A stretch of DNA of 63,967 nucleotides, filler included, from Diploschistes diacapsis (Eukaryota), in assembly GCA_023645945.1 (NCBI GenBank). It is 4 parts of 4 records of this genome, joined end to end, with 100 filler letters (N's around TTAATTAATTAA, not from the genome) between each part and the next. Parts side by side here need not be neighbours in the genome. Positions count along the whole stretch, not along the records: positions 1 to 16,608 come from JALAIB010000497.1; 3 more parts are not named here. One strand, 5' to 3'. The notes beneath the pieces were generated by a model. That model was not told where the DNA came from, did not search any database, and saw only the letters and a list, made by a program, of their open reading frames with translations. Of this stretch, positions 1 to 28,336 are shown one piece after another. The stretch's first letter is position 1; each line of letters begins with the position of its first letter. Position numbers and translations under genes: made by a program.

Positions 1-683
1 GGGGAGAGGAGGTTGGTGGGTGATGAGGATTGGGGCGAGGGAAAGAGTTGGAGATGGGGGAATTGAATTGAGGATTGGGAGGTTTTTGGTATCGGAGATG
101 AAGAGTGCGGGAAGTATTTGGATGATTGTACTAGAAAAATCCTGTGCTGAAGGGGGATTTGGTAAAGGGGTTTGTTAGTCCAAAGGTGCTAGAGTACTAT
201 TCTTTGCTAGGAAATGATACCCCAATATAATAATATAGCACACCCAGAGTCGGTATTCTCCTTAAAGTTTATTAAGAAAAAGCATCAAAACCTAAGAGAT
301 TAGGCTGTCCATTCGCAGATGGTCCGAGAAGCTTGTTTTTCCATCAATAAAAGTATTCGCTAGTCATGTTTATGGAAAGTACGTGGGAATACAGATATTG
401 GTACAGAAGTATCTATCTGAATCTATGTACTAGTCCAGACAAACTACACTACATGCTCCTCTGCTGACAAAATCCAAGACGAAGCCATTCCAAAGATCTG
501 TGCCATGCATGTGCAAGCGAGCTCGGAATCCAATCCATACAAATACTCATAGCCAGGGTAAAACAAATGAAGACCAGAAGCGCTTGCCTAACAAGACCCG
601 ACAATATCGCCTGCCTCTCACATTACAAACAGGCATGCCCACAAACCGCAAGTACAAGGCCAATCCTCCAAACGCTCCTCTGT

Positions 684-2650
684 CTACCCACCAGCCTTCG
701 TCATGTTCGTAAGCCCAACCCCGGCGTCCACCTCGCCGTCTCTGACCATAACGACACCTCCCCAAACAGCCTAGACAATCCACGTTAGCCATTCCCTCAC
801 CCCTCTGCTCCCCTCCCACCTCCTTGCCTGCTCCACCGCTCCACTACTCCAGATACGGCCAAGACAAATCCACGTACCTGAAATTGCGTGCCTCCGCTCC
901 CCACTGCGCCCGCCATCCAATCATCGTTCCATGCGCCCCCACTCCCCGTCCGAACCCTCCACTTCTCCTCCCCCGTCTCCCAGTCCAGCGCAACACCGTA
1001 CCAGACCCAGAGCCCCTGTTTAGCGAGATCTTCGTCCTGCGTGTACCCGTACACCAGGCCCGTTTTGGTGCTCAACACGGGCACGGCTTTCATGCGCAGG
1101 GGATTGCTCCATTTGACGCCACACTTCGTGGTCAGCGAACTTGTAGCTGCGGTGCTGCTGCTGCTGTTGTTGTAGGCTGGGTCGGAAGTAGAGGGAGTCG
1201 AGAGGGCAGCGGACACGTCGACCCTCACCAAGCCTCCTGGCATCCCGCTCATGTTGTTCCAGGACCCGTTTAGGTCTTCGTCGACGCCACGGTAGAGTGG
1301 CGGACCGTTGTATGTATTCATAAGCAACAAGCTGCTCGTTCCTTTTCCATCCGAGTGTGCAAGGGCGCCCAGATCCGTAGCACTAGCGCCGGGCTCGAAT
1401 AGCGGTACCGAGCACACTGGCTCTATTTGGATAGCCGCGTTAGGATCCAAGTTCGTACTGAGGTTGCCTGAAGAAAAAGTGGATAGTTGCTGCGGATAAA
1501 TCATCAACGCGATCTGGTCGTCCGAATTGTCCGTAACAGCGACGAACAAGTGCTCGAGGAGCGCGGGAGTGGTACCCGAGCCCCTAGCGAAGCCGCCGGG
1601 TTTCAGACGCGAGCCAGCTGGATAAGGGGATTGCCAAAGGGTCCGCACCTGCAGTTCGTTGGATGACGAAGAAGTTTCAGACTCCGACATAAGAGTCGAT
1701 GCTGTGAACGCATACATCCAGCCTGTCGCATTTGTCGTGTTTGCCGCCCCCGAAGGGCCTGTGACGATATACGCACTGTGGTTCGAGAGCGCAATGCCGT
1801 TCTCTATGAATTGATCCTGTAGTCGCGTATAGGCGATCGTATTGTCGGACGCCAGCACGCCGATCACTGCGGTCGATTGCGGGGGATCCCCCATCCCAAG
1901 AATGCCGCCTGTGGTAAACCAGATGTTGCCTGAAGAGTCGAACATGGCATTCAGGATGTACTCTGCCGGCCGGAGGACGCCGTCGGCGAGGAGGTCGACT
2001 GAGCGATTCAATGTGAACGTTGGCGACCCGGTGGCGTCAGAACGGTGGACGACGTAGATTTTTCCTTGCTGAGAAGTTATGAGAAGGATATCGTTGGTTA
2101 GGGAGAGTTCCATGTACGGAATATTAAGTGTCTCATTTGCGGTTGGCGGAGACCAGGTGGAGAGGACACGGAGAGTTGCTGGATCGAGGGCTGCGAGGCT
2201 ATAGGCAGGGAGGCCACCGTGCCAGGCGCCAGCTTGGGCGGAGGTTAGGCGACCATCGGAGTGCCAGAGGAGGATGGGAAGATTGACGGCCAGGCTGGAG
2301 GCGGTTGTATTGATACCGAGGGGACCGTGGTCGTCGACGCTACCAGTATTGCCACTATCTTGATGCATCAAGGTGGCGCTTGGACTGAAGCGGGCCTTGG
2401 GCTGTATGAGCTTGGCTGCCACGGCGGCCCCGGAAAAGGCGGAGCCAGCGAGCGGTTGGGAGTTCCGAATGGGGACGCCAGAGGTATTGGCTGTAGCAAA
2501 GACTTGGGAACGTTGCTGTTCGTCTGTCAGCCTGATCTACCCTGTGGTACCCCGTTGCTTGTATCTTACCGTCCCTCCGTTGGGGCTTGGGAGAGCTAGT
2601 ATAGTCCAATGGCACACAGATATCGTAAGATACCTGATTAGCAAGTTCAT
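684..2650 (-). CDS. Secreted beta-propeller-like hypothetical protein, 3 exons
   Basis: ATG 2650 gives signal-peptide-like MNLLIRYLTISVCHWTILALPSP. A 54-nt intron (GTAAGA..GCTGAC..CAG) joins it to the frame of ORF 797-2422. A second intron after GGTQFQ (GTACGT..GCTAAC..TAG) leads to last exon AVWGGVVMVRDG.., stop at 684. Propeller-like motifs FDSSGNIWFTT, ALDWETGEEKWR. Confidence 0.75.
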
Positions 2651-3420
2651 TAGAAACGAACACACTCAAAGGATTGGAGGGAGTGATATTAGCAATACAA
2701 AGTTGAGCAACTAGGTTCAAAGAAAAACAAACGGAAACGGAATGGAAAATGGAAAAGAAAAAGCAGAGACTTATGCACCATAAGAGTAATGCGGACATGA
2801 CAATCCCACCATATAGTGAATGAAGACATGAGAACGATCATCGTGAGAACGGTCATCTGGTCATGCATGATTCTCCAAAGAATTGACGATGTTTGCCAAC
2901 TTCCACATAGCCAGAGTATCGTGCAGCAGATTAATTCACTCCTTGACTAGTCTCAGAGGCTTCTAGGCATAATTGTAACAATAAACCAGGTAGAGGCAAT
3001 ATCCGAAGACTTTCCGTCATTCTATCACAGCAATCGAACTGCAAGCTTAGCTATGGACAAAGTGCCTCGGAGGAACCGGCGGCACCGGTGCCTGTGGTCT
3101 TGACGAGAAATCCCTGAGTGCTGCGCAAGAAGATGATTTTCCAGTTCTGCTTGTGTCCACAATTGTGAAAAGAACCGCACTTACAACACCTGATGCGGCG
3201 CAAAGTCTCTGACTGTCTTCCGAGCACGTAGTCCCAGATGACGATCCTATATTAGTAAGGTGAATCTAAAGCAAACAGCAGCTTGGCTGATTCAGACCTT
3301 CTGTAACCGCTTAGGGAGCAGTTGCGTAGATTTGTTGTACTTAAGACCACCGAGTCTCGAAAGTCTCTCATGCCTATGAACCATTATCGTAGTTTCCTTT
3401 GATGATGCTGAGCACGCATT

Positions 3421-4015
3421 TTGACAAGAGATCTTGCTTCTCTTAGCGTGCATAAACATGGTTCGAGCAAGACCCTGTCTTTGGTATATTGGAATCTTGT
3501 CAACTCGCAGCCCGCAATTGATACGGAGGGCGATAACTTCACGGCCAAGGCGTGTGCTGACAAACTCTATATGCAAGATGTGCTGAGGATAACCAGGCTT
3601 GACAGCGGGAAGTTGGAGAGGAATCTTAGTTTCAAATATATGGCAGTCTCATATCGACATGGACCTTGAAACACTCTGAACAGTGATTCTTAAACCTCTT
3701 GATGCTCTAGAAGCTTGCAATGAACAGGTATGCTGAAATGGAAAGCGCGGATGCAGGGCTGCGAATACGGATGTGATGCGATGCAATTGCTGAAAAGCGA
3801 GCTGGAGAGCCAACAACTAGCAAACTGAGATGAACTACCCAATGAATATGGACGCTGGGAAACTTCTATCTCATCCATGTAAACTAAGTGTACTTGAATA
3901 TTGTCACTTACTACAACTTGCTAATCTCAAGATGATAGAACGAGGAATTTTGCTACTTGTAAGAAGCGAGGGTGTCGCAGCTCGAGGCCTGCAGGTCTCC
4001 CTGGTTCTTGGGTAA
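3421..4015 (+). pseudogene. Possible decayed HET-domain gene fragment
   Basis: KYMAVSYRHG resembles HET YxALSYxWG. Downstream LRIRM*CDAI resembles LWIDAxCI. Multiple stops and frameshifts. Weak. Confidence 0.2.
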
Positions 4016-4083
4016 TATCGAAAAAGAGCTTGATAGATTGTTCCCCATGTCATTCTTTCTTTCAATGTCGTGAAGGTAAAAGA

Positions 4084-4091
4084 TGACGTCA
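4084..4091. promoter_or_regulatory. CRE/ATF-type palindrome TGACGTCA
   Basis: Perfect palindrome about 210 nt upstream of the ATG at 4300. Confidence 0.4.
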
Positions 4092-4299
4092 CAGTTGGTA
4101 AAAAGGAAATCGATCGTGCTCGTCATCTCAATCGCATCCGAAAGATAAGCCCGAATCGCTTTGCTCGCTCCCCAGCAACTGCATATGCAAAAATGGTATG
4201 CCTGTGCGATTCGAGGACACTCTCTTCACCACTAGCCGTCGGTGTATGATGTCCTCGAGTCCTGAAAATCCGGCGCTCGACTCTTAACTACGAGTCGCT

Positions 4300-5184
4300 A
4301 TGCCGCCGTTACCTTCGCCACTAACGCCTACCTTGCTATCGGCTATCCGAAGCCAACCCCATCTCCCTTCGCATGCATGGTATTTCGTCGCTGGCGTCAC
4401 TCTGTCAGCACTCAACAGAGCGGACGACATAGCGGCTATCTTGAAACATGCCTTGGAGAAAGGCCCGGCTCACAATGACGCGAAGCCGGGGCATGACGAG
4501 CAATTGGTTATTGCGCGCAAGATGCGCGAGGCGTTAGTGAAGGCTGCAGCCATCGGAGGGCTCCCCAAGGTTTGATGCCTGTGGTCGATATTTTATCCAA
4601 TCAAGAGCAAGAAGCTCATGGTGGTACCAGACAATCAATGCACTGTTCGCGCTAAAAGGGGCAACGCCTTCGTCTTTGCTCGATGAGCCTTTGGGCTATT
4701 CGCCCACCGGAAGAGCGGTTGATGTCTACGATGTGCCTTCGTCGACGGTTCTGCATCGGGGCCAGATATTCTTCGACAAGGTGTATGGCAAGGTTTCGAA
4801 GCGCGTCATGGGCCAGATGGATCGGTCAGGCACTGAAGACCTAGGGTTGACGGCAAGGCTCATGTACGGATACATATTGAGCAATACGACCGTCTTGACG
4901 CCCGCAGAGAGCAGCTTCGTGCTTATAGCGGGTCTTATACCCCAAGACGTGAGAAGCTTGACGGCCAATCGAAGCAAGAGGGGCAATGCTGATCACATAC
5001 GCTTTAGGTCAATCCGCAATTAAAGGGGCATCTGAAAGGGGCACTAAACAATGGCGCAACTTTGGACGAGATCAAGGCCGTGCGCGCGGTGGTCATCAGG
5101 ATTTGTGAGGCTTCGGGGATGAGGAGGCTTCACGAGAAGTCAGCTAGCGGATGGGGATGGACAGATGAGGTTGCGGATCTCTAG
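4300..5184 (+). CDS. AhpD/carboxymuconolactone decarboxylase-like protein (yeast Pxp2/YJR111C-like), 3 exons
   Basis: Introns 4570-4630 and 4949-5007 join WYFVAGVTLSALN..REALVKAAAIGGLPK|TINAL..IPQD|VNPQLKGHLKGALNNGAT. Ends WTDEVADL, TAG 5182-5184. Confidence 0.85.
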
Positions 5185-8100
5185 GCGAATCGCAGTCGAT
5201 AGGCCCCCCCCCCATCTGTCCGTATATACATATTATTGTAGCGACATCATGCTCCTCTGGCGTATCGGAGCGAGGACGCCTCATCTCTGGGACCTTGCCA
5301 TTTCGGGTTGCTGATTGGCTCCACGGGAAAAATAAACGTTGATAATTTGTACTGGATCTCGAACAGTTGAACTGCTTCCAAACCTTGCCTAGTAGTATGA
5401 GTCTTGCAGGGTCCTCGATATCCTCCACAATTTGCGCCAGTAGGTAACAGCTCTCTAATGCCTACTGAGTCAAGTGCGGCTATATCATCTTCGAACTAGC
5501 AGATCAATCTCCTCTGTGTGGTAATTTGAATATCATGTTATGAAAGAGAACAAATTTCCGCGGAAAGCAAGTTGGTGAGCAACTTCAGATTATTCTGTGG
5601 ATCTGACCCAACGGTGTGCACACTGTATCTGTAAGCACCCTCTTACAAGTCGTTGGTTGCACTGGGCGGGGAACGTTTCTGGGAAGCTGTGGACGGGCTT
5701 GGAATGTGTGGCAATGGCCGGGTGGTTGGGGACTTGGGAAGGAAACTCTGCCCCTGGGGCCGTTCCGAAATGCGTCAAAGCATTAGCGACACAACTCACC
5801 TTGCATGAATCTGAAAGCTGATCAAGCATGGATGGAGAATGACTGTGCCTCTGTCCCAGCAGAGATTAATTCTTCGATAGTTGATGGGAAGAACGATGCA
5901 CTGCTTAGCTAAGCATTATAGGGTACACAGGTATTAGTTATAGCCCTACAAGGCAGAAGTCCCAAAAGGAATGGACTTCTAAGCTTGCTGCTTACTCATA
6001 CACAACAACGTGCTCGAGTTGCTTTTTCTTTTTCCGAAATGTGCATTGCCCACTGCGGGGACCTCCGAAGTCTCTTCTCTTACTACTGCGCTCCATGGTC
6101 CATGATCCATGATCCATGATCCCATTCACCCAAATTAGCTTCACACCCACCCAAAAAATGGAAAAAGATATATGGTCGTGGCTTTTCACCGCCCCTCTCC
6201 ATCTATTTTCATACTTCATCCTCCTCTTTTGCATGCGATCAAGTCGGTGTCCAAACAGGCTGCAAGCGGGATATTGTGGCAGCCTCCTCCCATGCCCTGC
6301 TAGCGAGGTGGGTATGCCGAATCAGGCCCGATAGTGTGGACCTCTCGCTTCTGCAAAGCTTGATTGTGAGCATGGTATGGTATGCATAGCCTGGCCGAAC
6401 CTTTTCAGGAAGAGAAGCCATGACGAGCCGTTGTGACACCATCTCAATGGCTTGGTCCGACATAGAGGTGTGACGCTATCCGTCGCTAGGACATCCGATT
6501 TCCAAAAGCGAAATACATCGACTCTATCTGTGCACCAAACCGCTCAAGTCTTAAATGAATGATAATGATTCGTGACCTGATACGGTGCAATGCACGTAAG
6601 CTCTCGCTTTACGACCACTGAAGCCCCACTAAACAATGGCAATCCAATGGCGTTGCTTGCGGGATGGGATGGGTCGTGACCGTTCAAAGACGGGACCCGC
6701 ACGCCAGACCACATTATTCGTCCGACTCAAGCTTACGGAGACTCGACTTCCAGCCTTATATGGAATGAGCTCCAGGTACGCAATGACTGTGTGATAGATT
6801 GATAATTAATACAGATACGCTCCGTACCCGACATAAAGTCTCCTCCACTTTGGGCATAACAGCCAAAGATGTCGAGTTGGAGCTCAAAGGATCAAACCAT
6901 ATGAGGTTACCCGAGACGCCAGTGCAAGGCAGACTCAATCCTACATCGGTTGATTGGGCAAACGGTGTAGCATCGATGCTGCTCTTCATTTGCTTTGAGA
7001 TTGGCTCATCTGCTAAAGCTCTCCCTTGCTCTGTACGGAGTAGAATGTTCTTACGTCCGTGTCGTTCGTATTGCTTACTTCAAGAAGGCTACAGTCCGCG
7101 GAGGATGCTACACGAATCAAGTCTATCGTATGGATGTTCAGTCGACGACTCGACGACTCGACGACAAAGCTTACTGTCGCCCTACCGCTGCAGACGTCTC
7201 AGCTCACACGAGGCTCGCGGATCGGGTCCTTGTGGTTGCCGGTAGGAACACGAGTTTGGCGATATGTAGGGCGGTTCCAAGAAAGTCAAGCTCGGAAGCT
7301 GCATCTCTACACACAATATACGCTCAAGGGTTCTTGTTCTTCTCCTTACAGGAGCACGGTATCTCTCGTATCATGACAAAGTTTCTGGCATCTCTTTGCA
7401 AGGATGCCGTTACGGGAAAGTATGGGTCGAGATGTGCGTACATGACAGATGCGGAATTGGTTCTAGAGTAATACTTCGCAGATTGGGCTTACGCACGCAT
7501 GGATACGATACGCGTTGCCGTTTCGTACAGGGTCGGGACAAGCTCACAGATAGCCATTTATCTAGTTGTGTTGAGCAATAAATGCCTACTGCTGTTGTTG
7601 AGCGTCGCAGCACATGCATGGCTGGGAAGCATGTTCGTATGCTCTGCGTCATATCCGTTTCGGGACTGTGCTGCATTAGGGAGAACGGTGTTCTCTGGGT
7701 GTGCGCACGCAAATTGGAAAGAGCAGCAAGGTTTGGGGATCTAGAACATGATGATTTTTTGGTACTGGCATCTCTTGCCTTGGTTGCATTCATTACCCCT
7801 TCGAGTGTACGAGGCAAAAGGGTTTGTGTGCTATGCGAACCCAGACCAGGCACCTCTTTGCGATCGTGGCTTTGTAAAATTTCGCAATGACGCGTAGTGC
7901 CCAGAGGAACAGGGAGGCTCCGAATTACTTACTCAGTTGCTCGCGATGGGCATATGGGGGAGTAAGCACCAAAGCATCTTGATCGCCATGTTTGACGTGC
8001 CGCATCACTCTGAAACAAGGCCCTGGGGAAGGGCACACCTGGCATGGTGGTCTACAGCAAATTTTCAGGTGACATACAGACAGACAGACACGTTGCGGCA

Positions 8101-8442
8101 AGCAAGCGTTGCAGGCGGTTAACAGCACGTTGTTGTGATCGACTGCTGACCTCCGTCACGTACAGAACAGGAAAAGGTGATTGTGGTGGTGGTGGGGCTT
8201 GCTCGTTTTACACAGACAAAGATAGGCACAACGCATAACAACACTAACAACACAACATTATTCTCGGGGCCTGCCTTTGGGAAATAGAGGGTAAAGGGGG
8301 GCCATGCAAAGCTTCGAGTGACGAGCAGGGATCAGCAACGTGGCTCAGCCCTTTTTGTACCAGATGGAAATGGCCGTAAAGAGAGCCAAAGAGAGCCAAA
8401 GAGAGCATACCGATATAGAGTGGGCCCGACAGGCTGGGAACT

Positions 8443-8517
8443 GTAGCCTGTAGCCTGTAGTCTGTAGTCTGTAGTCTGTAGTCTGTGTAGTAGTCTGTGT
8501 AGTAGTCTGTAGCCTGT
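8443..8517. repeat. Compound microsatellite (TGTAGCC/TGTAGTC)n
   Basis: Tandem 7-mer units visible directly in the sequence. Confidence 0.9.
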
Positions 8518-9328
8518 ACCCTCCTCTTCCCATCACACAATCAATCACAACTGACACGAATGTGCGGGATGTGACTCGCTTAACCGTAGTGGGTTACGGC
8601 CTCGCTTGACTTTCGCTCTGATTGGATACAAGGTGAAAAGAAAAGTGGTCTAGCTTCAGGTGTTCATTTACTAACTGTTTGCCTAACGCTGCTGGTGGTT
8701 GATAGCACACCGCCCACTCGCTAGACCTTTTGCACGTTCTTACCATCTTTCTGGTGGAATCTTCACCACCGCTTCGCTCGAAAAGGCGGAGACATGCACT
8801 GCATTATTCCCCAGAACTTATCTGTCCATCTTCGACGAGGAAATCTTCGAGACTCTGCATGCCCTACCAAGTGCTACCACCTTGCACGTATGGACTTGCA
8901 ACTGCAGTAAGCCTTAGGCCCTATCGAGTAGGAGCCTGCGAGTTGCGCAATAGCAGAGACAAAACGGTGGGTGCGAGCGTGCTCGAAGCTTGCGGGCAGG
9001 GGAACGAACAGCGGCTCCCGCTCGGAGCGAATTCGCTGTGTTCCTGCTACCGCTGCTGCGAAACACAGATCACCAGCTAATTTCATCCTTTCTGTAATTT
9101 AACCCATATTCTGATTCGAGGGGTTAGTAGATTATACTACGTCAGTAGATTTCTTTTTCAAAACAGTTGCTCTTTCCATCTGCCCTACAGGTTCAGGAGG
9201 ATGTTAGGGGGGAACACCAAGTAGTTATTGGAGAAATAGGGGAGTGTGTTTTTGTTCACCGCACTCTGCTCGTACACTAGCGGGCGCGACAGGGCTAGGT
9301 TGACGGCGGGAGTCACCCTTGCATAAAA

Positions 9329-9360
9329 ACCATACCATACCATACCATACCGTACCATAC
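9329..9360. repeat. (ACCAT)n pentanucleotide repeat
   Basis: Directly visible tandem units. Confidence 0.85.
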
Positions 9361-10222
9361 CTTTCCATACGGAAACACCTTGCCGTGCTGCAGCCCTACG
9401 AGTATGTAGGAAAATGTGACTACTAGCTACGTATGGAAATGAAATAAAAAGGAAAATAAAACTAGGCTAAGCTACCTCTGCCCCATGTTAGCACACCGTG
9501 TCGGTGACTTCCTCACACCCACCCCCTCTAAACTCGTGCTCACGCAAACACTTCACTCACTCCTCACTTACTCACTCACGCTCACAGAGAACTCTAATTC
9601 TACTTTCCCCCCAAATCCCGAACCATCGGCCCACAAGGCTACCGCTAAGCCTACCACACCCATGCTTCCCACCCTTGTCGCCGAGTTCCCCAAATCGCCC
9701 ATCACCACCATCACCACCACCACCACCACCCATCCAATCCCTCCAATGGTCAATGCTCTGTACATTTCTTATTGTTGTTTGCGTTGTTGCTATAAGTCGT
9801 TTCTGATGCCCACCTCCTCCGCCTCGCTTCACGATCACCATAGTCATCATCATCATCCCTACAACCATAACGTTGTTCATTTCGGCCTCCCTCTATCAGC
9901 CATCTACAACCATCTGTTAGGCCCAGGTCATTCTCGAAGTCAGGTATCGCCATTCGCCCTCACCATTCCAGCCTTGCACACTAAGCCGCAACCTATCCTT
10001 AAAGAGAGACTGATTTCTAATTCTGACCCTCGACCATCGAACAAGCCTAGTTGATCGAAGGAATTCCTTACTCAAACAGATTGAAAGGGGAACCCTAATT
10101 ATTTTTGAACCAGCCCACGCCGATCCTCTCATACTTACAGATAATCGTCTCTGCATCGGCTGCCATTACAGTGCTCTACCGTTATTCGCCGGTTCGAGCA
10201 GGTCTCTCCTAGGGCGGGGTCC

Positions 10223-12656
10223 ATGGCGACGGAAGTTCTCACAGGCTTCAACGACTTTGTCCTATTTCCTCAGCAGCGGAACGACATCTATCCGAGCTTT
10301 CAGCTTCCCTTCGCCGACGGCAGCGTAGACCAACCCTACCAAGATATGGGTTCCAACTTCCCTCAAGGATTCACCAGCTTCGGCAACTACTACGAACCAT
10401 ACCATCAGGAGCATGTGCACCACAATGCTCCACGCTCACAGGCAGACGAGCATGCATACTCAAAAAACGTCGCGTCGGCATCTCCATCCATTTCCCTCTC
10501 TCAGTTCCTCGACCAGGCACCGTCAAACTTTTCCCACACCTCGGTAGCATCCGGTCAGAGCACAGCTTCGTCGGCGGTAGGTTCGCCTTACTCGCAACAT
10601 CAGAGCCTTCCTGCCGGTCAGGATCAGTGGAACGAGATGGGTCTTGGAATTGCTGGCACCCTAGCACCCACCGACATGTTCCCCGGCACCTACCAGCTTA
10701 CATCCACGGAGGCTGAAAGAGTCTTCGACGACAAGTTTGCCAGTACCTTTGTTGGTGAGTCCCCGCAGGTTTTTCAACACGTCAGCTCCGCGAGCTCGAC
10801 CATGTCTTCTGTTTCTTGTTCTTCCTTCTCAGAGGCATCTTCCGCCGAATTTCCTTTGACTGCTGTTTCTCCCGACTGGGGCAGCATTCCCACTTTCGAC
10901 GATTATTCTTTCGATAGGAGTCCAGCAGCCTGCAGGGGTTCGAGAGCGGCGAATGAAGTTGGCGGTGCAGGCACGCCCGCTTTTCAGCCTTCTCGATTTC
11001 CTGGCTCACAGCAGCATCGAGTTTCCCAAATTCATAATACTTTCTTTGCTCAGAGCAGTGGCAATTTTGTTGCTCCACTCGAGTCTTCCTGTTGGTTTTC
11101 CTTTGCACCTCGAATCCCTGGACGGGTTCATGCTTTAGATTGAAATTCGGTCTTATATTTTCCGTAGCGCTGGTTTTACTGGTATCTAACAGACCTTTCT
11201 CATAGATCCTACGCTCCTGTGCTCATTGGACCGACCCGCCCTGAACGCACCGGCCTCTCCATACCCAGCCTACATGCCAGCATCCTACTCGACTCCTTCG
11301 CACACGGTTCAGCCGCCCTCTCCGGCTCCTTCGGACGTCTCCAGCCATGGCTCTCACCGGAACTCTCTCGTATCAAGGACCCGGCACCCTTCGCCGTATC
11401 TGTACAACCCGTATCCAACCCCGACACAGAGCCGCATGGGCCGAAGAGGCTCCATCTCGAGTTCCCGGTTCTCCGTCGACAGCCCGAGATCGGTCAGCCT
11501 CGGGTTCGAAGAGGATGGCAAGGAGCGAGAGCGGTGTCCTCATCCCGAATGCGGTCGACCGTTCAAGGACCTCAAAGCCCACATGCTCACGCATCAGGCC
11601 GAGAGACCGGAGAAGTGCCCGATCGTGACGTGCGAGTACCACACAAAGGGCTTTGCCAGGAAATACGACCGTTGCCGTCACACCTTGACCCACTACAAGG
11701 GCACGATGGTGTGCGATTTCTGTCCGAACAGCGGCTCGGCTGCGGAGAAGAGTTTCAACCGTGCCGACGTCTTCAAGCGGCATCTCACTTCGGTCCATGG
11801 CGTCGAGCAGTCTCCTCCCAACAGCAGGAAGAAGGCCCCATCGGGCGCGAAGAAAGCTGGAAATATCGAGGCCAAGGTCGGCAAATGTTCGACTTGCTCA
11901 TCCACGTTCAGCAACGCACAGGAATTCTACGACCATCTCGACGAGTGCGTCCTCAAATTCCTGGATCAGGGAGAGCCCAGCGAGAGGGTCAACGAGCAGC
12001 GCCTCAAAGAAATCAACGAAGACCCAGACGTCAAAGAGACGCTCGAGAGGCACATGCTTCCAACGGAACTCGAGATGACGACGCGAGCGAACTTGGAAGC
12101 CGAAGAAGGGGACGAAGACGACGAGGGGGAGGGGGAGGAGGAGGAGGTCGACGCGGCGTGGATCGGCAACGCAGCCGCCAGCTCCCGTTCCGGCAAGGGC
12201 AGCATCGCGGCCAGGAAAGAGGATTCGAGCTGACAATCAGCACATCCCCGGGGTGTCGGATTGCACGTCGGGGGTGGCAACGCCGTCTCGAAACCCGGTC
12301 GGGCCTCTGGTGGGAACGGCCGCGGCTTGACCCGCTCCAAGGGAGGCATCCCCGTGATCGGCAAGGGTCGCAAGAAGAGAAAGCACTACCCCAGCTCCTG
12401 GGGCTGTGCGATCGACAAGATGAAGATGAAAAAGCGGGTCATGTGCGTGTACGACGGGCAGCGACGGCTGATGAAGGACGAGATGATGCTCGACAACGAG
12501 CACCAGGTTCGCATGAGCCTCGGACGGAATAGCAACGCCTACGTCACCGACCTCGACGTCCACTCCGTCGAGCGAGCCGATGCGCTGCACAACGCCACGG
12601 AGGAAGAGAAGGGGCCTTGGGAGCCGAACCACGAGGTGGGACGGCTAATGCTCTGA
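10223..12656 (+). CDS. C2H2 zinc-finger transcription factor with alternative 5' donors and an internal TGA (12231-12233)
   Basis: Fingers CPHPECGRPFKDLKAHMLTH, CPIVTCEYHTKGFARKYDRCRHTLTH, CDFCPNSG..KRHLTSVH and CSTCSSTF..HLDEC. Donors at 10755 (GTGAGT) or 11091 (GTTGGT) to acceptor 11205 (CTAAC..CATAG). The short form ends at 12233; the same frame stays open to 12656. Confidence 0.9.
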
Positions 12657-15580
12657 GGGGGGGGAGCAAAGCAAGAGGATGTGGTCCCAAACATGTACAT
12701 GTGCTGCTCCCATATGGTTTATGTTTTTTTTTCTTCTCCTTTCTGGCTTGTTTGGATCGAGAGATATCCCATTCTTCTGTTCTACTTTTATATCGAACCT
12801 GGGGGATGATTCTGCCATGATTGCCCGCACCACCACCTCGTATGATTGACGACGAGATAGGGAAGGAAGAGGGGCACGGAAGGAGCGAAATTTGATGCAC
12901 CATGCAGAGGGCAATGCAGCACGGAACTTGGTTGACGTCTTGTTTATTAGACTAGCGACATCTCGAAGCCGTGCGTGGCCTACTCAGACTGCGGGCCGCC
13001 GGGGGAGAGGCAGAGAGACAGGAGGCAGAGATAGAGAGACGAATGAATCTAGATGCTGGCCATCCAAGGTCCTAACCCACCCAACACAGACCCCTCCCAC
13101 CCCCCAGCTTGGCAAGGTGCATCATGCGCATGTTGATTGATCAAACGCAGCAGTTCTTTCCCCGTAGAAGTCGCGAAAATCATAAAAATGAAGACGGATA
13201 GAAAAACGGAAAAAGAACAGCTGAAACGCCCAACAGCTTCTGCTATCGGCCAATCTGGGCTGAGGAGAGGTAGATAATATACAGGGAAAGTCGTACTTGT
13301 GTAGTCAGTAGGTAGGTAGGTAGGTAGTTAGGTGGTGGTTTGTATTGCCACCACGTGCGCAGGCCGGCAAGTTAAGGGAGCGTCTATAGCCCAAGGAGAG
13401 GAGAGGAGGAGATGTGACGTTGAGCTGCAGTGTTGTTGTTGTTGTTGTTGTTGGTTTTCTTTTCTTTTTTTTTTCTTTTCTTTTTTCTTTGTTGCTGGTA
13501 ATGCAACGCTATTCTTTTAGCTTAAGGGGAGGAGGAGATGATGCTAATGTTGAATGGAGAACAACTCGAAGGGGAGATTGGCAGCGCGCGCTCAACCCCT
13601 CAAACGCGTTCAAGCTGTGTCTTTGGAGACAACAGACGGGGTCGAGCCTGATGCCCGATATATACACGTAGATACATATGCCAGACCAAATCGAGTTTTG
13701 TACCCACCCCGTTTTTATGGGCCTTGTAGATCCCCAACATTTAGGATGGCAAAACGTTGGTCTCGGACTCTCAGCCTCCCTTTTCTTTTCAATTGCCCAA
13801 GTGTGAGGACATTCTTTAGGCATCGGCTGCATTTGCTTCGTAGGGCTGGCTGGCTGGCGGCTCCTCAGACTCTGCGCATGGTGGCATGGTGAACTACTAG
13901 GTACCTAGTAATAGGTACCTAGTAATAGTTACCTACATCGTTGTAGATACGACCTTGCAATAGATGGTACTACTGGGACAAATTTTTATTATTCTTTTTC
14001 TGTCCATCAACAACAACCCAAACCGGCCTGGGTCGGGGCAATTGACGTGAATGCTGACATCTGAAGGTACCCAGAAAACCTTGCTTACTTGTAAGCTCAA
14101 CCCTTTTTTTTTCTCTTTCTTTTTTTTCTTTTCCATGCCCCTGGTTCGGGTGGCCATTGGCGGCTTACGCTGATGCCGACGCTGACTGACGCCCATTGCC
14201 ATTCTCTGCCTCTCGTTCGCTTTGTCCTTCGGCATCGTACCCTGGCCCTGGCTGCCTTTGTCTCTCTAAATTCTCACTCGCTCACTCACTCACTCACTCA
14301 CAAACAAGACAAGCACAGCCGGCTTCTCCAGCATCCGCTCAATCTACTTCTCACAGCAAGTACTGTGTACGTGCAGAGAACCAAAGACTACGAACCAAAG
14401 GAAATTGGTGGCCAAACGACGGAGATGAGCCTGTAACACGCCACATCTCGAGGCTGTTCGGATCTTCGGCCAAAAGAGTCGAAGAGAGACGGACGATCTG
14501 GCGGCGTGGACGGTATCGGTAGTTCGTGCAGGACATGAGGTTCGGACATGCATGCAACGATCTAGACTGCGGGTCAAAAGGTTAGAATCTCCTCTTCCCA
14601 CCCCATCTACCTAAGGTACGCCTCTAGAACCAGGCCCATACTACTACGACGCTTCGTCGAGCACAAGCAAGTCACAGCTGAGGCTCAAGCACGCGGTCCT
14701 GCGCAACCTGAAGTTTGTTGCCTACTCCGCTCACTGAGTTATCCCTATCCAGACAACAGAACCTCACCAACTCAACACCTGTGCATAACGGGAACATCAC
14801 ATGCGTAGTGTAATAATCTACTTGGCCGCTTCTTGACTACTCGACATTTAGTTGACACTGACCCCAGTGCCTGTATGTCCATCCAGAGGCAAGGGAAACC
14901 TCATTCGCCGAGCATCTCAATCTCTCAGCGTCATTTTAATTGGCCATGATCCCGGTAGAGGTCTCGCGGATGATGTGTACCTATACTGCTAGCGATGGTG
15001 TACGTTCCATGGTAAGGCGACTTCAAGTCAGGCGGTAAGTGTGCTGACTACTGGTAAAACAACCGTGAATCCTGCGATCCGTCACTGGGCCAGATGGTCA
15101 TTTCAATTGACTTGCTAAGTTGCCGGCGAGGCAGAAACAGACGGGGAAATGGGAAGAGAAGGTTCAGGCCGGGCATCTACGATTTATGCATTTACGTGGT
15201 GTCATTAAGGCGGCCTGGACGCTTCACCTCTGGAGTCCGGCGGTACGAAGGTTTTGATTGGTAAGGAGGTAGGGGAAGGGAGATGAAGTTGCGGGTGAAC
15301 TTCACAACCAGGAAGCTTGGGTTTGTTAGCGGAGGAGCTGTGACCTCGGTATGCGTGGTGTTGCATCGTGCTATGAATAGAGAGACTTTGAGTCCGCGCC
15401 AGCGAAATGCCAGAGACTTACGAAGTACCGTTATACTCAACCTTGGACATATTGGATGGTGCAAGCTTTTGTTTATATTAATCAACTGTCTGGTCTTTGA
15501 TGTGGGTTGTGGTGGCTTCGTGGACGCTTGTTCCATTGCTTGTGCTTAAAGTCTATAAAGTCTATCAATTACTGAAAGGT

Positions 15581-15619
15581 GCGAAAATGACGCGTTTCAC
15601 TTACTTACCGCGTCGCGTC
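15581..15619. promoter_or_regulatory. MCB (MluI cell-cycle box) cluster upstream of PRI2
   Basis: ACGCGT at 15590-15595 plus CGCGTCGCGT nearby and GCGAAA, about 200 nt before a DNA replication gene. This is the standard MBF-target arrangement. Confidence 0.65.
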
Positions 15620-15805
15620 TCCTCACCTCACCTTTACCCTACATCGCAATTACAGTGGATTCGTCTCAATAAGCGCAGAAGCTACAGCGCTGCCTCTAAT
15701 TCTCCCATTCCAGAAACCTCTATCAATCAACAATAACACCCTCGCCGTCTCACTCTCTCCCGCCTGCCGCCTTCACGGGCTCAATCTTCACAGTCCATTG
15801 CCACA

Positions 15806-16608
15806 ATGCTCCGCAGCGACTCCCACTCCCAGAACAGCCGCGTGGACGCGAAGCGGAGGAACATCAATGCGAGGCGCAAACAATTCGCAGACCCGACGTA
15901 CAAGCAGCAGGAGTATCCCTTTCGGCTGAACTTCTACGATGTGCCGCCCACGGCCGAGATCACGCTCGAGCAGTTCGAGCAGTGGGCTATTGATCGTTTG
16001 CGCGGTATGTCCTGTCACATCCCCGGTGCTTCTGTAGGCGGAGTAGGTACGACGAAGAAGTCAGAATGACAAAGCAGTGGATGATGTAGCTACTCCATTG
16101 GCGTGGATATGTGCACCTTCTCTACCGCGTTCCCCTATGCTGCGCTCTTCTCACTCGTTTCCCTTCCAAGACTCTTTCTCCATCCTCACATACAACACCG
16201 CCCTCCCACAGTGTCTCCTCAATTTGCAACGCTAACGCCCCGATCCAAGTCCTCGCCGAATTGGAATCCACCTCCCACCGCAACCTCTCGCCCGCCGAAG
16301 CCTCCCTCCACATGCAGCCCGTCATCTCCAAGTACCTCCCCCTCTCCTCCAACTCCTCCACCTCCCAAGGCTTCTCGGACCCTCTACTCCGCTCCCAGCG
16401 CCAAAAGGACCACTACTCCCACTTCATCCTCCGCCTAGCCTTTTCCTCCACCGAAGAACTCCGGCGCAGATTCGCCCGGGTGGAGCGGGAGCTGTTCAGG
16501 CTGCGATGGAAGGACGACGACGGGCGGGAGCGGAGGGAGTGGATCGCGACCCAGGAGTGGGAGTGGGAGGCCGTGGGCGAGGCCGAGCGGAGGGAGCTGA
16601 AAGAACAG
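15806..16608 (+). CDS. PRI2: DNA primase large subunit, 3' truncated by the spacer
   Basis: YPFRLNFYDVPPTAEITLEQFEQWAIDRLR, intron 16005-16249, then VLAELE..RQKDHYSHFILRLAFSSTEELRRRF. Confidence 0.93.
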
Positions 16609-28060: not shown

Positions 28061-28336
28061 ATGCTGCTCTGCCGCTCAGCAACCACAACCCACCACTGGC
28101 TCCTCTGTCTCTCTATTGCGTTCGCTGTCACCACCTTTGGCGTTGTTATCGGGATCTACTTCGCCCTCCACAACGCCCGATCCTTTGCTCTTTCATCTCC
28201 TCCTTCGTCTGCTGCATCCGCACCGAGGATCTCCCTTACTGTGCCTGCCGGGCCCGTGACGTCGATGACAACTACCGTTACCGCCACTTTCGTTGCCACT
28301 GCTATGAAAGGCGTGCCGACGTATGGACACCCATGA
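28061..28336 (+). CDS. Small single-pass membrane protein with Ser/Thr-rich tail (paralog A)
   Basis: WLLCLSIAFAVTTFGVVIGIYFAL hydrophobic helix, then an S/T/P-rich segment. Similar to the gene at 29206. Confidence 0.55.
   Translation: MLLCRSATTTHHWLLCLSIAFAVTTFGVVIGIYFALHNARSFALSSPPSSAASAPRISLTVPAGPVTSMTTTVTATFVATAMKGVPTYGHP

Follow-up and report, generated by a model that had tools for sequence, protein, structure and literature searches.

An in-frame UGA followed by a conserved CARYYA hexanucleotide and a 3' stem-loop: a probable readthrough site in a C2H2 zinc-finger gene of Diploschistes diacapsis and related fungi

Programmed readthrough of stop codons in the cellular genes of fungi is known mainly for short peroxisomal tags. 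Stiebler and co-workers reportedly found in 2014 that metabolic enzymes gain a peroxisomal targeting signal through readthrough at UGA-CUA. We analyzed a C2H2 zinc-finger gene of Diploschistes diacapsis (assembly GCA_023645945.1) that lies in a window of 63,967 nucleotides (nt), filler included; the window joins four parts of this genome, and its positions 1 to 16,608 come from the record JALAIB010000497.1. In this gene a TGA ends the zinc-finger frame and is followed, in the same frame, by 140 further codons, and we propose that this stop is probably a leaky one. The enzymes of Stiebler would share with our gene the programmed readthrough of UGA in cellular fungal genes and the production of two isoforms; there, the stop is said to be followed by CUA and by a targeting extension of a few residues, whereas here it is followed by CAA and by 140 residues that contain a domain, in a transcription factor.

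Other described systems share single features with this locus. According to the excerpted text of PMC3542737, the hexanucleotide CARYYA stimulates readthrough of UAG and also of UGA, and 3' stem-loops located about 8 nt downstream of the stop are stimulatory as well. In a mammalian reporter, CARYYA led to about 15% readthrough, UGA being about equal to UAG (excerpt of PMC4132726). In type I readthrough of tobamoviruses (Skuzeski 1991, as cited in the excerpt of PMC3542737), the hexamer has the same form as here, CAA and YYA placed right after the stop; our case differs in that the gene is a cellular fungal one, the stop is UGA and not UAG, and a conserved stem-loop is added. Type II readthrough of alphaviruses and coltiviruses (Firth 2011 and Napthine 2012, cited in the same excerpt) also combines UGA with a stem-loop, with a spacing of about 8 nt as against 9 nt here, but the codon after our stop is CAA in the 34 sequence clusters defined below, not CGG or CUA, and our stem is short, with 13 base pairs (bp). 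Readthrough likewise extends a transcription factor at its C-terminus in Drosophila Drifter/vvl and in human VDR (excerpts of PMC8417969 and PMC5868278), in other kingdoms, in other contexts and without any common sequence. Finally, a parallel can be drawn with CHE1 of Fusarium graminearum (excerpt of PMC11169179), which is also a C2H2 regulator with a conserved internal stop hidden under falsely annotated introns and with short and long isoforms. CHE1 is a different gene of 310 amino acids (aa), its stop is a TAG located before the fingers and corrected by adenosine-to-inosine (A-to-I) editing, and the excerpt reports its conservation only among close Fusarium species. In open-access full text, we found no account of the present site or of any cellular gene of filamentous fungi with readthrough of the CARYYA type; a Zymoseptoria annotation preprint and the S. 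osmophilus genome preprint use the word "readthrough" only for transcripts and retrotransposons.

The stop under study occupies positions 12231..12233 (all features described here are on the + strand) and is directly followed by the hexanucleotide CAATCA (12234..12239), which has the CARYYA form. The extension of 140 codons covers 12234..12653, in the frame of the zinc fingers, up to a second TGA (12654..12656) that, as we read the sequence, would end the long isoform. An earlier examination of this DNA without database searches (hereafter the sequence-only reading) had noticed the frame ending at TGA, the 140 open codons, the six bases after the stop, a coding-like composition downstream and the lack of an in-frame ATG before about 12420. 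Frame reading bears out these observations: the GC content at third codon positions (GC3) of the extension is 0.81 in frame versus 0.62 and 0.45 out of frame, and the extension has its first in-frame ATG at 12420.

All locus counts given below were obtained with the best 80 of 342 related loci that were confirmed in a scan of metagenome contigs. The zinc-finger and C-terminal parts share one frame in 80/80 loci; exactly one in-frame stop is found, at the homologous position, in 62 of them, the other 18 having none. With the window added, the stop-bearing loci amount to 49 distinct sequences of 213 nt, grouped into 34 clusters with less than 10% difference within a cluster. Every stop-bearing sequence has TGA as the stop and CAA as the next codon. 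The second codon after TGA is TCA in 23 of the 49 distinct sequences, TTA, which is the version of tobacco mosaic virus, in 20, CTA in 5 and CCA in 1. CARYYA is therefore found directly after the stop in 49/49 distinct sequences and in 34/34 clusters, with positions +1 to +6 and +9 invariant and positions +7 and +8 always pyrimidines, and the conservation of the stop with its hexamer, which the sequence-only reading had proposed to check in orthologues, is complete among the stop-bearing sequences. The residue encoded after Gln changes (Ser, Leu or Pro) while YYA stays, which argues for a constraint on the nucleotides and thus on the RNA. The bare motif is not exceptional: TGACAAYYA occurs 3 times in the window for 1.9 expected, 32 of 100 shuffles reach 3, and the two other matches, at 28266 and 59569, fall outside any long open frame and are put down to chance. 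It is the conservation, not the motif as such, that goes beyond chance. We also observed that the base at -1 is T in 31 of the 34 clusters, across His, Ser, Cys, Asn and Asp codons and despite third positions that favour G or C; this T may be part of the signal.

A second element is found 3' of the hexamer. The minimum-free-energy fold of the window contains a stem-loop of 13 bp at 12243..12276, in which 12243-12251 pairs with 12268-12276 and 12253-12256 with 12263-12266, so that the stem begins at +13 after a spacer of 9 nt. The third codon positions +12, +15, +18, +24 and +27 are kept in 28-32 of the 34 clusters, far above the third positions located 5' of the stop. RNAalifold, applied to the 29 clusters having the segment, returned the same 13 pairs at -23.56 kcal/mol, with compensatory changes in 3 of them; one pair is realized as GC in 12 clusters, AU in 10, GU in 6 and AC in 1. 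When this structure is imposed on the 34 clusters, 95.4% of the alignment cells are paired, versus 42-59% with slid partners, and the covariation score is 0.199 versus 0.115 +/- 0.010 after shuffling, none of 500 shuffles being as high. The peptide motifs that code both arms were found in 58 of 63 stop-bearing sequences and in 0 of 18 stop-less loci, and this association of the arms with the stop fits an element whose purpose is linked to the stop. A search of positions 10000-13600 against Rfam matched no family at E <= 1.

A protein search with residues 290-488 of the read-through translation retrieved 543 proteins at E <= 0.001 among 1637 candidates (best E value 3.5e-58), which indicates that the extension truly belongs to the orthologues; full-length members of the family have about 800 aa. 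Judged from these alignments, members of this C2H2 family in Lecanoromycetes, Dothideomycetes and Eurotiomycetes normally carry it as their C-terminal domain. The invariant alignment columns delimit a conserved domain at 12324..12620, which reads GLTxSKGG ... KGRKKRKxYPxSWG ... KMKMKKRVxCVYDGxRRL ... YVTDLD ... EEKGPW. All 120 matches listed carry PF28332.1 as a label precomputed by the database, and our own Pfam scan of the extension found no family. The ratio of nonsynonymous to synonymous rates (dN/dS) in the extension has a median of 0.137 and a maximum of 0.40 (443 finite values among 561 pairs), with synonymous sites saturated between clusters (median proportion of synonymous differences, pS, 0.68). 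A ratio below 1, as would be expected if the extension is translated, had been among the tests proposed from the sequence; with the values obtained, the downstream frame is, from codon comparison, under purifying selection. The predicted structure of the extension is weak, with a mean predicted local distance difference test (pLDDT) of 56 and a predicted template modelling score (pTM) of 0.34, only residues ~65-130 being near 70. As a Foldseek search of this model against the Protein Data Bank (PDB) gave no match at E <= 0.001, fold assignment was not made; a search of the ESM Atlas gave no usable match.

We also checked whether or not the TGA is authentic. Three DNA runs cover the stretch: X1 is identical to the window and may be its source, while X2 and X3 come from other studies. 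Compared with the window, X2 and X3 display 17 substituted sites and 3 insertions or deletions (indels) over 801 compared bases, of which 10 differences lie inside 12234-12656, with 6 at third codon positions. Positions 12231-12233 are unchanged in the contigs of both runs, the closest difference being at 12210. The base-call error envisaged in the sequence-only reading is thus excluded, since X2 and X3 keep the TGA despite differences of their own. As a side observation, small indels are found in X2 and X3 at 12665-12685, just past the second stop (4-5 bases missing, one C extra), as fits untranslated sequence starting after that stop.

Altogether, these data make programmed readthrough of UGA, stimulated by CARYYA and the 3' stem-loop and giving rise to proteins of 631 and 772 aa, the probable explanation for this locus. 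Most ribosomes would terminate at 12231-12233 and release the 631-aa protein, made of the N-terminal region and all zinc fingers. A fraction of them would decode UGA with a near-cognate tRNA and continue for 140 codons to the 772-aa protein, which would gain the KGRKKRK basic stretch, similar to a nuclear localization signal, and the conserved C-terminal domain. This leak would be promoted by CAA-YYA right after the stop and by the 13-bp stem-loop 9 nt downstream. The sequence-only reading had imagined a short and a long transcription factor produced by readthrough or by inefficient splicing: the first route is retained, given the invariant stop and hexamer, the low dN/dS and the conserved extension, the second is not, for reasons given below, and the conserved stem-loop had escaped that reading. 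As the stop has been kept in spite of saturated divergence, selection could be acting on the ratio of the isoforms or on a low dose of the long one.

The two lengths derive from the following gene structure. Exon 1 covers 10223..11090, from the ATG at 10223 to the donor T|GTTGGT, within an open frame at 10145-11143, and its N-terminal region can be aligned with full-length orthologues. The intron that follows (approximately 11091..11205, 115 nt), inferred for the window from GTTGGT ... CTAAC ... AG, is homologous to a 110-nt intron of the related locus L025, which is missing from the contigs L028 and L030, where the exon junction PLESS|YP is uninterrupted. Exon 2 up to the stop (11206..12230) codes for atypical C2H2 zinc fingers, an acidic stretch and a basic SRSGKG linker, in a frame that is open over 11190-12233. 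The fingers match Pfam zf-C2H2 with an E value of 0.00076, under the cut-off of the family. An identity as an NsdC-type C2H2/C2HC regulator was rejected on finger spacing alone: the first finger has the spacing C-X4-C (CPHPEC), whereas NsdC-type proteins possess two C-X2-C-X12-H-X3-H fingers and a C2HC finger (spacing from PMC13599534). A purine-rich GAG/GGA run at 12108-12159 codes for the acidic stretch just 5' of the SRSGKG linker; it was handled as a repeat in read mapping, and the contigs of X2 break there. Simple repeats are found 3' of the gene at 13300-13500, namely (GTAG)n-like repeats at ~13310, (GTT)n at ~13430 and long T-rich runs.

Among other explanations, the one that survives best, while being improbable, is that A-to-I editing converts UGA into UGG (Trp). 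To our knowledge, Sordariomycetes and Pezizomycetes are the groups from which such editing is known, and the classes concerned here are not among them, which counts against it. It would have a fungal precedent in CHE1, where a conserved premature stop of a zinc-finger regulator is edited and false introns were annotated over the stop (excerpt of PMC11169179), and one stop-less relative, P0121, has Trp at the site. The precedent, as excerpted in the same source, strongly prefers U just before the edited A and hairpin loops; here, G precedes the A, which lies in a weak stem of the window fold. Editing would also leave the invariant CAA-YYA unexplained, and contigs that resemble mRNA, described hereafter, read TGA, although contigs would hide a minor edited fraction.

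Slightly less probable in our opinion is a short in-frame intron, constitutive or alternative, that would remove the stop at 12193-12240 (GC-AG, 48 nt) or 12187-12240 (GT-AG, 54 nt) with CTGAC as a branch point. The sequence-only reading had indeed pointed to GCTGAC/AATCAG around the stop, as a branch point with its acceptor, and to the weak donors GTTCCG at 12187 and GCAAGG at 12193; as sequences, all of them exist, and both donors are in phase. Their conservation, which the same reading had proposed to look for, is not observed. The GT at 12187 belongs to a CGT codon, for which most relatives have CGC or CGA, and GCAAGG at 12193 simply spells Gly-Lys-Gly. An AG at 12239-12240 requires a G after YYA and is missing in the lineages with TTAA, CTAA or TCAA, and no other AG acceptor is conserved, +21 being G in 18 of the 34 clusters. 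The body of the candidate intron (SRSGKGxIKSxK) is kept as protein even in lineages and classes without the stop, and the frames on either side agree in all of the loci.

Contigs without introns provide a further argument. L053 is 100% identical to the genomic locus L055 except that its two GT..AG introns (111 and 295 nt) are missing, and it keeps TGA CAA CTA. L027-L030 are without two canonical introns of L025 (94% identity) and keep TGA CAA TTA. All five contigs are continuous through TGA CAA YTA; we take them to be metatranscriptome assemblies resembling spliced mRNA, processed copies being the unlikely alternative. As a separate observation, L025 possesses at 2463-3004 two donors, GTGAGT at 2463 and GTCGGT at 2895, for one acceptor of its upstream intron, and an alternative upstream donor is used in two of L027-L030. 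Between L027 and L029 on one side and L028 and L030 on the other, the N-terminal coding sequence differs by 432 nt, so that isoforms may have a second source in this Pleosporales-like relative.

In favour of an intron, public gene models of relatives often put one over the site (for example P0003, P0004, P0006, P0013, P0014 and P0097). These models are inconsistent at the junction: some pass through with a sense residue and others excise differing pieces, with conflicting boundaries even between close species. The stop is skipped by conflicting introns in P0097, P0003, P0004, P0006, P0013, P0014, P0051 and P0065, from Alternaria infectoria, Xylographa, Lambiella, Alectoria and others; P0097 is without 25 codons that L039, a relative with 93% identity, has. 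Deposited models that skip the stop are probably misannotations.

Still less credible would be a plain terminator, with the short protein as the sole product of this mRNA and the downstream domain either decaying or made on its own from an internal promoter or by reinitiation. The in-frame ATG at 12420 could serve such a separate expression. The first in-frame Met comes only after the conserved YPxSWG motif, and after about 30 conserved residues, in 27 of 34 clusters; a separate initiation is therefore unlikely and would leave the conserved residues just after the stop unexplained. Decay is at odds with a dN/dS of 0.14 across saturated divergence, and the strict continuity of the frame in 80/80 loci would be needless under separate expression. 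That UGA is a selenocysteine or reassigned sense codon can practically be dismissed: its sole support is that the stop is always UGA, no selenocysteine insertion sequence (SECIS) or other Rfam match was found over the positions searched above, TGA is also the terminal stop of the long frame in 22 of 34 clusters and thus not reassigned as sense, and we know of no selenocysteine machinery in Ascomycota.

Readthrough, which we prefer, has several observations weighing against it. The window has C and not the usual T at -1 (12230). The fold of the single sequence is unexceptional (z = -1.04, with 29 of 200 shuffles folding equally well); RNAalifold over all 34 clusters gave no pairs, which appeared only after dropping the 5 clusters without the element (L047, L048, L049, L060 and L062), and these five keep TGA CAA YYA without a stem-loop. 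The controls for pairing and covariation are lenient because the rows share ancestry and the structure was taken from one of them. As for the mRNA-like contigs, they belong to Pleosporales-like relatives rather than to lichen fungi and display the major form only, so that a minor spliced or edited form may go unseen. What is directly observed is the conservation of stop, hexamer and stem-loop, the coding constraint and continuous frame downstream, and the TGA in mRNA-like contigs of relatives; the passage of ribosomes, its rate and the residue inserted are inference.

The distribution of the stop gives some insight into its history. Stop-bearing loci are closest to Teloschistaceae, Parmeliaceae and Acarosporaceae (Lecanoromycetes) and to Pleosporales (Dothideomycetes), and stop-less loci are mostly closest to Chaetothyriales and Verrucariales. 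Among the taxa concerned, lineages were verified for three genera, Neocucurbitaria (Pleosporales), Wetmoreana (Teloschistaceae) and Pleopsidium (Acarosporaceae). On a quick gene tree computed with IQ-TREE, at least 3 changes between stop and no stop are required, and the stop-less loci L010 and L012 are nested within a well-supported stop-bearing clade. The residue at the site in stop-less relatives is Gly, Ser, Arg or Trp, as seen in the proteins, with codons inferred; the codon set of each of these four residues holds a one-base neighbour of TGA. The simplest account of this pattern would be one old origin followed by repeated loss. We lean, with some reserve, towards an ancient translational switch: a two-part signal, UGA-CARYYA and the stem-loop, would have been present in the common ancestor of lichen-forming Lecanoromycetes and Dothideomycetes, setting the ratio of finger-only to full-length protein, and would have been kept across synonymous saturation and lost several times through one-base changes to sense codons. 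The ratio of the isoforms might respond to conditions.

The site stands out by the depth of its conservation, by its two-part signal and by the annotation errors that it has caused. A systematic error is exposed: in public models, including one of Alternaria and those of several lichen fungi, either the protein is cut short or the stop is concealed by false introns that disagree with one another. Some lineages have replaced the stop, which makes the family a clean natural system in which to ask why others keep it where sense codons work. If readthrough is true, a signal known from plant viruses, together with a covarying stem-loop, would decide in two fungal classes whether a transcription factor carries an entire conserved domain. 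If, moreover, the switch is as ancient as proposed, this would be the most deeply conserved cellular readthrough site of fungi known to us, and the plant-virus hexamer would have a natural use in cells.

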